A DNA stretch of 5,055 nt, taken from the IMG/VR virus record IMGVR_UViG_2534682172_000010, one strand, 5' to 3'. The translations under genes were made by a program, and so were the position numbers. Positions 1 through 5,055 of this stretch are shown here, piece by piece (the first letter of the stretch is position 1; every line of letters starts with the position of its first letter). Source of the DNA: a virus (Duplodnaviria; Heunggongvirae; Uroviricota; Caudoviricetes). The notes beneath the pieces were generated by a model. The model was not told where the DNA came from. It worked only from the letters and a program-made list of their open reading frames with translations, and ran no database searches.

Positions 1-1325
<1,325 letters not shown>

Positions 1326-1345
1326 AATTGTTATAACCCATATAA

Positions 1346-1371
1346 GGGCACCAGAAATGGTGCCTTTTTTA
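1346..1371 (+). terminator. Rho-independent terminator downstream of J
   Basis: Perfect 6-bp GC-rich stem GGCACC (1347-1352) / GGTGCC (1359-1364) with a 6-nt loop AGAAAT, followed directly by T6 (1365-1370); sits 22 nt after the J stop codon. Confidence 0.8.
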
Positions 1372-1383
1372 TTGCAGAAAAGC

Positions 1384-1389
1384 GAGAGG
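1384..1389 (+). promoter_or_regulatory. Shine-Dalgarno sequence for lom
   Basis: GAGAGG at 1384-1389, 5 nt upstream of the ATG at 1395. Confidence 0.6.
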
Positions 1390-1394
1390 TAATT

Positions 1395-1994
1395 ATGCGT
1401 AAACTTTATGCCGCCATTTTGTCCGCAGCCATTTGTCTGGCCGTATCCGGTGCGCCTGCATGGGCGTCTGAACATCAGTCCACGCTGAGCGCGGGGTATC
1501 TTCATGCCTCGACGAACGTTCCCGGCAGCGATGATCTGAACGGGATTAACGTGAAATACCGTTATGAGTTTACGGACACACTGGGGATGGTGACGTCATT
1601 CAGCTATGCAGGAGACAAGAATCGCCAGCTGACCCGTTACAGCGATACCCGCTGGCATGAAGATTCCGTGCGTAACCGCTGGTTCAGCGTGATGGCGGGG
1701 CCGTCTGTGCGCGTGAATGAATGGTTCAGCGCGTATGCGATGGCGGGTGTGGCTTACAGCCGTGTGTCGACTTTCTCCGGGGATTATCTCCGCGTAACTG
1801 ACAACAAGGGGAAAACGCACGATGTGCTGACCGGAAGTGATGACGGTCGCCACAGCAACACGTCTCTGGCGTGGGGAGCTGGCGTGCAGTTTAACCCGAC
1901 CGAATCCGTGGCCATTGATATTGCTTATGAAGGCTCCGGCAGTGGCGACTGGCGCACTGACGGTTTCATCGTGGGTGTCGGTTATAAATTCTGA
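1395..1994 (+). CDS. lom: Outer membrane protein Lom (Ail/Lom/OmpX/PagC family, 8-stranded beta-barrel), 199 aa with N-terminal signal peptide
   Basis: Complete ORF ATG 1395 to TGA 1992-1994 with an SD. The N-terminus MRKLYAAILSAAICLAVSGAPAWA/SEHQ is a typical Sec signal peptide with an AxA cleavage site (nt 1395-1466). The C-terminal ...AYEGSGSGDWRTDGFIVGVGYKF matches the lambda Lom C-terminus as I recall it, and the terminal aromatic Phe is the usual beta-barrel assembly signal. The internal blocks INVKYRYEFTD and SVMAGPSVRVNEWFSAYAMAGVA are also lambda Lom-like. Position between J and stf matches lambda. Confidence 0.93.
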   Translation: MRKLYAAILSAAICLAVSGAPAWASEHQSTLSAGYLHASTNVPGSDDLNGINVKYRYEFTDTLGMVTSFSYAGDKNRQLTRYSDTRWHEDSVRNRWFSVMAGPSVRVNEWFSAYAMAGVAYSRVSTFSGDYLRVTDNKGKTHDVLTGSDDGRHSNTSLAWGAGVQFNPTESVAIDIAYEGSGSGDWRTDGFIVGVGYKF

Positions 1995-2020
1995 TTAGCC
2001 AGGTAACACAGTGTTATGAC

Positions 2021-2048
2021 AGCCCGCCGGTTCAGGCGGGCTTTTTTG
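2021..2048 (+). terminator. Rho-independent terminator downstream of lom
   Basis: Perfect 8-bp stem AGCCCGCC (2021-2028) / GGCGGGCT (2035-2042) with loop GGTTCA, followed by a T-run (2043-2047); 27 nt after the lom stop and 11 nt before the stf ATG. Confidence 0.85.
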
Positions 2049-2058
2049 TGGGGTGAAT

Positions 2059-5055
2059 ATGGCAGTAAAGATTTCAGGTGTACTGAAAGACGGCACAGGA
2101 AAACCAGTACAGAACTGCACAATCCAGCTGAAAGCAAAACGTAACAGCACCACGGTGGTGGTGAACACGCTGGCCTCAGAAAATCCGGATGAAGCCGGGC
2201 GTTACAGCATGGACGTTGAGTACGGTCAGTACAGCGTTATTCTGTTGGTGGAAGGATTCCCGCCGTCACATGCCGGGACCATCACCGTGTATGAAGATTC
2301 CCAACCCGGTACGCTGAATGATTTTCTCGGTGCCATGACGGAGGATGATGCCCGTCCGGAGGCACTGCGCCGTTTTGAACTGATGGTGGAAGAGGTGGCG
2401 CGTAACGCGTCCGCAGTGGCACAGAACACGGCAGCCGCGAAGAAGTCAGCCGGCGATGCCAGCACATCTGCCCGTGAGGCGGCAACCCATGCGACTGATG
2501 CTGCAGGTTCAGCACGTGCAGCCAGCACGTCAGCCGGACAGGCCGCTTCGTCGGCTCAGTCAGCGTCTTCCAGCGCAGGAACGGCATCAACAAAGGCCAC
2601 TGAAGCCTCAAAAAGTGCTGCCGCTGCAGAGTCCTCAAAAAGCGCGGCAGCTACCAGTGCCGGTGCCGCGAAAACGTCAGAAACGAATGCTGCAGCGTCA
2701 CAACAATCAGCAGCCACTTCTGCATCCACCGCGACTACGAAAGCGTCAGAAGCTGCCACCTCAGCCCGGGATGCGTCGGCTTCAAAAGAGGCGGCAAAAT
2801 CATCAGAAACGAACGCATCCTCGAGCGCCAGTAGCGCAGCTTCCTCGGCAACGGCGGCAGCAAATTCCGCGAAGGCGGCAAAAACGTCCGAGACGAACGC
2901 CAGGTCTTCTGAGACGGCAGCGGGACAGAGCGCCTCAGCTGCGGCAGGCTCAAAAACAGCGGCTGCGTCGTCTGCCAGTGCCGCGTCAACAAGTGCCGGG
3001 CAGGCCTCAGCCAGTGCCATCGCCGCCGGAAAATCGGCAGAAAGCGCCGCATCATCCGCTTCAACAGCCACAACGAAGGCTGGCGAAGCCACTGAACAGG
3101 CCAGCGCAGCAGCGAGGTCAGCTTCCGCAGCGAAGACATCCGAAACGAACGCGAAAGCGTCGGAAACCAGCGCAGAATCCTCAAAAACGGCAGCGGCATC
3201 GTCCGCCAGTTCGGCGGCGTCATCGGCCTCATCGGCGTCTGCTTCAAAAGATGAGGCGACCAGACAAGCGTCAGCAGCGAAGGGCAGCGCCACGACGGCA
3301 TCCACGAAGGCAACAGAGGCTGCTGGCAGTGCGACGGCGGCAGCACAGAGCAAAAGTACGGCGGAATCTGCAGCAACGCGCGCTGAGACAGCGGCAAAAC
3401 GGGCAGAGGATATTGCATCCGCCGTGGCACTTGAGGATGCGAGCACGACGAAAAAGGGGATAGTACAGCTCAGTAGTGCGACTAACAGCACTTCCGAGTC
3501 ACTGGCGGCAACACCAAAAGCCGTTAAGGCCGCGTATGACCTGGCTAACGGGAAATACACCGCACAGGATGCAACGACAGCACAGAAAGGGATAATCCAG
3601 CTAAGCAGCGCGACCAACAGCACGTCTGAAACGCTGGCGGCAACGCCAAAGGCAGTAAAAACAGCCTATGACAATGCTGAGAAACGTCTGCAGAAAGATC
3701 AGAACGGTGCGGATATCCCTGGCAAAGGCACCTTTACGAAAAATATTGGTGCCTGCCGTGCCTTTGGTGGGTCAGTAAGCACAATAACAGGAAACTGGAC
3801 GACTGCACAGTTTATCGAGTGGCTGGATTCTCAGGGAGCATTTAACCATCCCTACTGGATGTGCAAGGGTTCCTGGTCTTATGGCAATAATAAAATCATT
3901 ACTGATACTGACTGCGGTAATATTCATCTCGCCGGAGCTGTCATTGAAGTAATGGGGATAAAGTCAGCGATGACGATCCGCATTACCACTCCGACCACAT
4001 CCAGCGGTGGCGGAACAACCAACGCCCAGTTTACCTATATTAATCACGGAACAGATTATTCACCTGGCTGGCGAAGGGACTATAACTCCAGAAATAAGCC
4101 AACGGCATCAGAGATCGGGGCGTTACCGTCAGGTGGAACAGCAGTATCATCAGTTAATCTGTCTTCAAAAGGTCGGGTAACCGCGCTGACAGACAATACG
4201 CAGGGGGCAGCAGGTCTTGAGTTATACGAGGTGTATAACAACGGATATCCAACAGCGTATGGAAATATCATTCACCTGAAAGGGATGACAGCCGTTGGCG
4301 AAGGTGAGTTACTCATCGGCTGGAGTGGTACAAGCGGTGCTCATGCTCCGGCATTTATTCGTTCACGACGGGATACGACCGACGCAAACTGGTCGCCGTG
4401 GGCGCAGCTTTACACCTCGGCTCATCCTCCTGCAGAGTTTTATCCAGTCGGTGCACCAATCCCGTGGCCATCAGATAACGTTCCGTCTGGCTATGCCCTG
4501 ATGCAGGGGCAGACTTTTGACAAATCTGCATACCCGAAACTTGCAGCGGCTTATCCGTCAGGCGTGATCCCTGATATGCGTGGCTGGACGATTAAGGGCA
4601 AACCTACCAGTGGTCGGGCCGTATTGTCTCAGGAACAGGACGGCATTAAATCGCATACCCACAGCGCCAGCGCATCCAGTACGGATTTGGGGACGAAAAC
4701 CACATCGTCGTTTGATTACGGCACTAAATCCACGAATAACACTGGTGCGCATACCCATAGTTTAAGTGGCAGCACGAATGCAGCTGGTAATCACAGCCAT
4801 AGAGATGGCCGTCGATTTAACCCCAGTGTTTTTAAAGATACTTATCAATATGGTTATACAAGCTCAGGTCAAAATACCTGGGGTGTACAAGGCTCAGTAG
4901 GTATGTCTACGGGGTGGTTAGCTAATACCAGTACAGATGGTAATCATAGCCATTCACTGTCCGGCACAGCAGCATCTGCAGGTGCACACGCGCATACTGT
5001 CGGTATTGGTGCTCATACGCACTCCGTTGCGATTGGTTCACATGGACACACCATC
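2059..5055 (+). CDS. stf: Side tail fibre protein Stf (lambdoid Stf/StfR-like), 5' ~999 codons; 3' end outside window
   Basis: Frame 1 is open from ATG 2059 to the window end (I translated it by hand and checked codon phase at several landmarks; no in-frame stop). The N-terminus [37 protein letters not shown]...YGQYSVIL...[25 protein letters not shown] and the C-terminal part [80 protein letters not shown]...[25 protein letters not shown] match lambda Stf as I recall it. A weak SD-like GGGGTG lies at 2050-2055. Absent from the ORF track because it has no stop codon within the window. Confidence 0.93.
2380..3450 (+). repeat. Ala/Ser/Thr-rich quasi-repetitive coding region (tail-fibre shaft repeats) inside stf
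   Basis: About 350 codons dominated by GCN/TCN/ACN codons, with the recurring motif AAK(T/S)SETNA (near 2676, 2806, 2887 and 3136) and similar A-x-S-A-S blocks. Strong 3-nt periodicity keeps several other frames stop-free. Confidence 0.7.
3454..3672 (+). repeat. Tandem duplication of a conserved tail-fibre motif ([27 protein letters not shown]-x-A-Y-D) inside stf
   Basis: Copy 1 at 3454-3540 ([29 protein letters not shown]) and copy 2 at 3586-3672 ([29 protein letters not shown]), 132 nt apart and in frame. Codon-by-codon comparison shows mostly third-position differences (ctc/cta, agt/agc, act/acc, tcc/tct, gag/gaa, aca/acg). Confidence 0.75.
4654..5049 (+). repeat. His-box (HxH) repeat region of the Stf distal domain
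   Basis: Seven in-frame HxH motifs: HTH 4654-4662, HTH 4750-4758, HSH 4792-4800, HSH 4945-4953, HAH 4987-4995, HTH 5014-5022 and HGH 5041-5049, set in Gly/Ser-rich context ([45 protein letters not shown]). Confidence 0.7.

Follow-up and report, generated by a model that had tools for sequence, protein, structure and literature searches.

Two units of the PF03406 tail fibre repeat in a lambdoid side tail fibre gene and their probable role as a seam for module exchange

We analysed a 5,055-nucleotide (nt) stretch of DNA from a tailed phage of the Caudoviricetes (IMG/VR record IMGVR_UViG_2534682172_000010), called the window throughout, whose right part is occupied by a side tail fibre gene, stf. 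The shaft region of this gene carries two units of a tail fibre repeat that is listed in Pfam as PF03406, and the array formed by them is very probably a shared adaptor at which recombination swaps fibre modules and alters the number of units. A preliminary description of the DNA, made from its letters alone, had recognized a duplicated motif at this place and had proposed it as a recombination point for domain shuffling. Our analysis supports that interpretation, and the phenomenon has long been described.

Two units of a catalogued repeat

A repeat search returned a two-copy family of direct repeats at positions 3434-3540 and 3566-3672 of the window, each 107 nt long and sharing 74% identity. 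Both copies are in frame 1 of stf, and their starts are 132 nt, or 44 codons, apart. The 29-residue core peptides of the preliminary description were recovered at 3454-3540 and 3586-3672 with the sequences and spacing given there, and the similarity between the copies reaches six codons further towards the 5' end (DASTTK and DATTAQ). A profile search with the translated gene matched the Pfam family PF03406, 'Phage tail fibre repeat' (Phage_fiber_2; InterPro IPR005068), in two stretches with a score of 128.6 bits and an E-value of 6.1e-38 (gathering cut-off 22 bits), so that the repeat cannot be ascribed to chance. The best stretch places residues 506-546 of the protein on positions 1-41 of the 42-position profile, and both copies match the model end to end. 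Judged by these matches, the two copies of the motif are consecutive units of the catalogued 44-residue phage tail fibre repeat. The true unit comprises 44 residues, of the form D-A-[ST]-x-T-x-K-G-...-A-Y-D and then a nine-residue linker, and the array is laid out as follows:

3436..3567, plus strand: repeat unit 1, 44 codons, 'first-unit' type, in the register of the hidden Markov model (HMM); DNA similarity to unit 2 from 3434
3568..3699, plus strand: repeat unit 2, 44 codons, 'last-unit' type, in the HMM register
3673..3719, plus strand: short conserved extension of 16 residues ending in QNGADIP, the second breakpoint class described below

Tandem units of about 40 residues in tail fibres are what the Pfam family describes, and the window shows no essential difference from it. 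Added here are the exact 44-residue period, the range of one to five copies and the positional identity of units within the lambda/P2 group.

The divergence between the two copies is nearly all synonymous. Counted by the Nei-Gojobori method, the 29-codon core contains 17.0 synonymous differences at 21.7 sites (proportion pS = 0.78, a saturated value) and 3.0 non-synonymous differences at 65.3 sites (pN = 0.046); over 35 codons the counts are 21.5 and 6.5, respectively. The longest identical run between the units is 11 nt, and over the full 132 nt copies 1 and 2 are just 63% identical. A recent tandem duplication, or an expansion during assembly, was rejected as the origin of the pair, since near-identity would then be expected in place of 74% over 107 nt, a pS of 0.78 and a longest run of 11 nt. 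These values, and an identity of 95-100% between units occupying the same position in different genes, uphold the earlier view of an old duplication held by purifying selection. The duplication is, however, not peculiar to this gene, as the copies are two units of a family-wide repeat that occurs one to five times.

Copy number was determined with a unit HMM in 91 genes: 80 IMG/VR loci retrieved with a two-unit peptide query, ten annotated phage loci and the window. The hmmsearch program was run with the --max option; its default filters drop five Ala/Ser-rich fibres. These genes have between one and five units, and in 150 of 151 cases neighbouring units are exactly 44 residues apart. One unit is present in lambda, where the preliminary description had placed a single copy and the lambda sequence confirms it, as well as in PhiR29_1, PhiR34_1, 2H10, Chlobot, phi458 and P1 S; two are present in the window, mEp460 and the gpH of Wphi, and three in the gpH of fiAA91-ss. 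A motif-independent sample of 80 IMG/VR loci, picked by the stf N-terminal domain alone, yielded 77 genes with one (48), two (20) or three units (9), so the two-unit state of the window is common.

The repeat is widespread. Positions 3400-3720 of the window have matches in 3,657 of 5,426 complete E. coli genomes, at up to nine places per genome, although the count at 80% coverage does not equal a count of two-unit genes, as single-unit genes, aligned in two pieces, attain 86% coverage. Prophages throughout the Enterobacterales have close versions of the unit, with periods of 42-45 residues, and such versions are also found in Rodentibacter, Eikenella, Paenibacillus, one Bacteroidales genome and one metagenome-assembled genome of the Phycisphaeraceae.

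Homology breaks and unit types

Breakpoints were located with collinear chained blastn alignments against the window, in which a gap of exactly one unit was treated as a change in copy number and the first loss of homology was recorded. The loci were those of the N-terminal-selected sample, because motif-selected loci and off-register high-scoring segment pairs inflate the counts at unit edges. Among 76 informative loci, the first break lies at 3530-3540 in 19, at 3659-3678 in 25, at 3719-3747 in 16 and at 4727-4787 in 13, with three more in the coiled coil upstream of the array (2816, 2900 and 2985); breaks inside a unit were found in none of the 76. The 218 nt from 3530 to 3747 thus hold 60 of the 76 first breaks, compared to 5.5 expected under uniformity. 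Clustering at the motif, anticipated in the preliminary description, is therefore present in loci chosen without reference to it. The breaks do gather at the array, but they fall at its edges and 47-75 nt beyond, after ...QNGADIP, and not inside the units.

The 5' edge is equally well defined. Of 26 IMG/VR genes whose N-terminus is P2-gpH-like, 22 have 3434 as the first position of homology to the window, and the homology of P1 S and of the P2-like gpH proteins starts at the same position. Lambda homology stops at 3529 (aligned to copy 1) or 3659 (aligned to copy 2) and resumes at 4450, with no lambda DNA homology in between, which agrees with the earlier placement of the motif at the boundary between lambda and non-lambda parts. 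The breaks at 3719-3747, seen in 2H10, PhiR34_1 and Chlobot in addition to the 16 IMG/VR loci, correspond to the end of the ...QNGADIP motif. A motif of this type also stands after the single unit of Mu S, and PDB entry 8ju3 has another copy at the start of its S' part. Relatives regain homology at 4409, 4436 or 4462. As far as these alignments go, collinear homology is shown to begin at the 5' edge of the array and to end at the 3' edge of the unit core or after QNGADIP. Further sharp junctions were observed in the same gene, with homology resuming at the start of the collar domain (residue 794), breaking again at 4727-4787 and resuming at 4929-4962, within the His-rich GxHxH repeats of the tip.

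Behind N-terminal domains of at least 98% identity, the N-terminal-selected set contains seven unrelated families of distal modules, four of which are combined with varying numbers of units. Among the motif-selected genes, the N-terminal flank of lambda type is joined to six C-terminal flank families and the gpH-type flank to four of the same six. These family counts are a better measure of exchange than the raw number of breakpoints.

At the nucleotide level, copy 1 of the window shares 95-100% identity with the unit that comes first in other lambdoid stf genes. Copy 2 shares 95-100% identity with the unit that closes other arrays, among them those of genes with a P2-gpH-like N-terminus; for genes with a non-lambda N-terminus the value is 95.5%. 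By this measure of nucleotide identity the units are positional orthologues, from which it follows that they have not been homogenized within genes and that the divergence of the unit types is older than the spread of the array among fibre families. The same comparisons show that the first unit travels with the virion-proximal module, whether this resembles lambda Stf or P2 gpH, and that the distal module is accompanied by the last unit.

Several genes contain a unit of mixed type. The stf gene of PhiR29_1 equals the window gene minus exactly one unit (window positions 418-3540 and 3586-4769 align), and its single unit is a hybrid, of copy-1 type in the 5' part and copy-2 type in the 3' part, with the switch at about 3501-3513. 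Hybrid single units are also found in 2H10 and in the loci L095 and L108, with the switch at about 3477-3491. The differing switch points imply more than one event. Read from their sequences, such hybrids with varied switch points bear the mark of homologous recombination between units that were out of register.

Module exchange and competing explanations

We propose that the array would serve as a structurally neutral adaptor common to otherwise unrelated fibre genes. In-register homologous recombination between units of co-resident phages or prophages would swap the distal receptor-binding modules, while out-of-register recombination would add or remove whole units of 132 nt. The window gene would then be a mosaic, composed of an N-terminus and coiled coil of lambda type, two units, a centre of Mu-S'/P2-H type and a tip of lambda/T4-gp37 type. 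Several points weigh against this proposal. The loci are not independent, and the 76 breakpoints may represent perhaps five to seven acquisitions of distal modules and their descendants, so that the binomial figure overstates the support. Breaks at the edge of a conserved island are equally expected from illegitimate recombination followed by selection, and sequence cannot separate the two. The copy number may have changed in either direction, by deletion from two units or by insertion into one. With a longest shared run of 11 nt, moreover, out-of-register crossovers should be rare or should proceed via relaxed-homology recombinases; such rarity fits the preserved positional identity of the units. 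Lastly, any structural role of the unit is presumptive, as the available monomer model is poor and the unit-bearing PDB entries are those of Mu S alone.

If joins were made illegitimately anywhere in the gene and survived only at domain boundaries, the motif would be a tolerated structural seam and not a substrate of recombination. This would account for apparent breaks at unit edges rather than within units, and for other sharp junctions that match domain starts, such as 4436 at the start of the collar. The switch points of the hybrid units, however, lie inside the unit, in stretches common to both copies; copy number moves by exact steps of 132 nt, as reflected in the 150 of 151 spacings of 44 residues; and orthologous units offer 107-132 nt at 95-100% identity, which is ample for RecA or Red. 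We therefore regard this explanation as rather unlikely, though conceivable for the module swaps. Homologous and illegitimate mechanisms are not mutually exclusive, and the hybrid units and exact steps argue for homologous events at least where copy number has changed. We give little credence to a duplication that arose once within this lambdoid stf lineage and was kept by purifying selection, without exchange with other fibre families. Synonymous saturation alongside a conserved protein is compatible with such an origin, as is the frequency of the two-unit state in lambdoid stf genes (20 of 77), but P2-like gpH genes with two to five units share the 44-codon period and the linker LANGKYTAQ, copy 2 shares 95.5% identity with the last unit in genes whose N-terminus is not of lambda type, and the gpH gene of fiAA91-ss is collinear with window positions 3434-4106 at 78.6% identity. 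From these three observations it follows that the array predates the gene families and moves between them, and the identity data already point to a grouping of units by position across gene families.

Site-specific exchange is a further candidate, in which the junction would be the relic of a Din-family invertase (Gin, Cin or Pin) acting at a gix/cix-type site; according to a passage of PMC3945230, Sandmeier proposed this route for tail fibre genes. A serine recombinase gene does lie just past tfa in mEp460_ev081, a phage whose stf is 98.5% identical to that of the window, and the invertible Sv' of Mu is a homologue of the central module. Against this, the crossover core AAACCNNGGTTT (AAACC-NN-GGTTT) has no match with two or fewer mismatches in the window and none with one or no mismatch in the mEp460_ev081 locus, although a positive control with this pattern did find the annotated cixR site of P1. 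The P1 cix site, furthermore, is located about 600 nt downstream of the P1 repeat element, and inversion leaves both the whole-unit steps in copy number and the hybrid units unexplained, which makes this route very improbable. The recombinase gene directly after tfa, found at 6745-7335 of the mEp460_ev081 locus (L001) and also in loci L005 and L006, may be a vestige of an invertible fibre system, given the absence of a recognizable crossover core from stf and the lack of space for an alternative Sv'/U' segment. An assembler that expanded or collapsed the repeat can be dismissed with near certainty. The repeat does break short-read assemblies, as seen from repeat-alone proteins on contigs of 217-450 bp. 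The copies are just 74% identical, however, and with 28 of 107 positions differing they are too divergent for collapse or expansion. The two-unit arrangement is also found in a single uninterrupted alignment in the complete genomes of mEp460_ev081 (98.5%), PhiR68_2, PhiR26_1 and PhiR42_1, and at 99.4% in complete E. coli chromosomes; this recurrence in independent genomes excludes the artefact that the preliminary description had named as a possible refutation.

A different reading of the unit assigns it a function of its own. Prophage fibres of Enterobacterales, Pasteurellaceae, Neisseriaceae, Paenibacillus and Bacteroidales show hardly any variation in its 29-residue core, which in Paenibacillus has up to 84% identity to the copy in the window, and near-invariance in the presence of saturated synonymous sites exceeds the conservation expected of a plain shaft spacer. 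The unit could then be a specific functional node, for instance a clamp for trimer registration or a site at which a conserved factor of assembly or of the host docks, with copy number tuning the reach of the fibre; we consider this unlikely, and if it were true, the role as a recombination seam would be secondary to functional constraint. An AlphaFold2 monomer model of residues 450-700 had a predicted local distance difference test score of 54 and a predicted template modelling score of 0.27, too poor for a fold search, and merely hints that each unit may end in a short helix. A PDB profile search with 22 diverse units matched Mu S entries only, and according to the Mu structure paper the model of gp49 comprises its N-terminus alone.

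The stf gene, its relatives and the meaning of the seam

The window corresponds to the following features, in addition to the array:

Whole window: right end of a lambdoid tail gene cluster, with the 3' part of a J homologue, lom and stf
1395-1994: lom
2059..5055, plus strand: stf, side tail fibre gene in frame 1, with its 3' end past the window and 999 codons visible
2461..3433, plus strand: Ala/Ser-rich, heptad-like region between the N-terminal domain and the repeat array, presumed to form a trimeric coiled-coil shaft
3720..4408, plus strand: central module of non-lambda type, with homology to the Mu S' variable part and some P2-like gpH
4436..5055, plus strand: distal lambda/T4-gp37-like part with collar and His-rich tip, supported by the 2xgf match; lambda homology at 4450-4728

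The stf frame opens with MAVKISGV at 2059 and has no stop by 5055. Its DNA is 98.5% identical to that of phage mEp460_ev081 across all of the visible length, and 97-98% identical to other complete coliphage genomes. Pfam matches comprise the prophage tail fibre N-terminal domain PF08400 (residues 1-134, E = 5.1e-72), the Collar domain PF07484 (residues 798-845) and weak signals of gp34/gp37 type. Among structures, residues 1-94 match the N-terminus of lambda Stf (PDB code 9e7m, 'Tail fiber protein'; E = 3.3e-52), residues 538-695 the Mu S/S' chimera (8ju3; E = 4.6e-84) and residues 794-999 the tip of T4 gp37 (2xgf; E = 1.6e-69). Of the gene order J - lom - stf - tfa, the window contains J (disrupted), lom and stf, whereas tfa, which follows stf in mEp460_ev081 and other close phages, would lie past the window end. 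The protein is identified as a tail fibre by PF08400, Collar, the gp37-tip homology, the J-lom-stf synteny and the presence of tfa in the 98.5% relative.

Numerous families of short direct repeats with spacings in multiples of 21 nt occupy 2461..3433. Long open reading frames in other frames and on the minus strand (335, 355 and 231 residues; window 2456-3623) overlap the Ala/Ser-rich coiled coil; they are by-products of the GC-rich, repetitive codon composition of stf and not genes. The J (host-specificity) homologue at 302-1325 is disrupted by a 1-nt deletion at 557, relative to mEp460_ev081, which shifts frame 2 to frame 1, where a stop follows at 1137. The conserved C-terminus of J (...MPSGRGSVTLEFKIF...GISIR*) goes on in frame 3 to about 1325. 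The disruption reflects either a defective prophage or sequence errors.

The closest comparison is lambda Stf (Ur-lambda stf; orf-401/orf-314 in lambda PaPa), which shares with the window the N-terminal domain, the coiled coil, the repeat unit, the distal collar and His-rich part and the J-lom-stf synteny. In lambda, however, one unit is followed by ...VVMDETNRKAP and another central module, whereas the window has two units and a centre of Mu-S'/P2-H type. The sequence MDETNR may serve as an insertion point in chimeric fibres. The P2-like gpH proteins (fiAA91-ss, Wphi, P37) have arrays of two to three units, and up to five in IMG/VR loci, with the same period and linker. They are fibres of myoviruses, and their N-terminal baseplate-attachment part is unrelated to that of the window gene, which encodes a siphovirus side fibre, with homology from exactly 3434. 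For P1 S, repeated elements a0 and a1 are already marked at the homologous site in the GenBank record, where a1 measures 132 nt, and the constant part of Mu S (PDB codes 5yvq, 9ki1 and 8ju3) has one unit at residues 111-153 and then ...DRNGADIP. In P1 and Mu an invertase switches the variable distal part at cix/gix downstream of the unit, whereas the window is without such a site.

Three observations on public data concern the repeat itself. Paenibacillus and relatives (L188-L190, L195, L206, L211, L215, L222, L224, L232 and L236) have prophage fibres with a single unit, whose core in Paenibacillus matches the E. coli unit at up to 84% identity, an unusually high value across phyla for an element of a fibre shaft. 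A search with the 85-residue two-unit protein returned only fragments shorter than 150 residues, mostly on contigs of 217-450 bp, and IMG/VR loci were used for architecture instead; many 'partial tail fiber' proteins at NCBI (among P0001-P0120) consist of the repeat alone on such contigs. Short-read assemblies of E. coli evidently often break at this repeat, presumably owing to its presence in several prophages of one genome. The frameshifted stf unit of lambda PaPa (...VVMDETNRKAHWT) is found, identical, in assemblies of unrelated organisms (L191-L200 and L227), namely Chromatium, Leeuwenhoekiella, Marinifilum, Enterococcus, Lacrimispora, Algoriphagus, Patulibacter and Pseudomonas contigs of 48.4 kb, and looks like laboratory lambda DNA contaminating public data.

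The elements of this picture are already known: the repeat is an existing Pfam family, the 132-nt element is annotated in P1 and horizontal exchange has long been described. A passage of PMC3945230, citing Haggard-Ljungquist 1992 and Sandmeier 1992 and 1994, treats the horizontal exchange of stf, H and S genes as well documented, and the references given there describe exchange among lambda stf, P2 H, P1 S and Mu S since 1989-1994. The finding is correct, illustrates a known phenomenon and opens no new question. The host range of phages is decided by tail fibre mosaicism, which has been exploited in the engineering of chimeric fibres, as in the lambda-P2 Stf chimeras for base editing in the gut (PMC11338833), for which the main text of the paper names no fusion motif. 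The window is a textbook example of this mosaicism, with the repeat array as the seam between the virion-attachment and receptor-binding halves of the fibre. Our analysis contributes the minor practical details that the natural seams are those at 3434, at the 3' end of the unit core (...KAVKxxxD) and after ...QNGADIP, and that units can be gained or lost as a whole.

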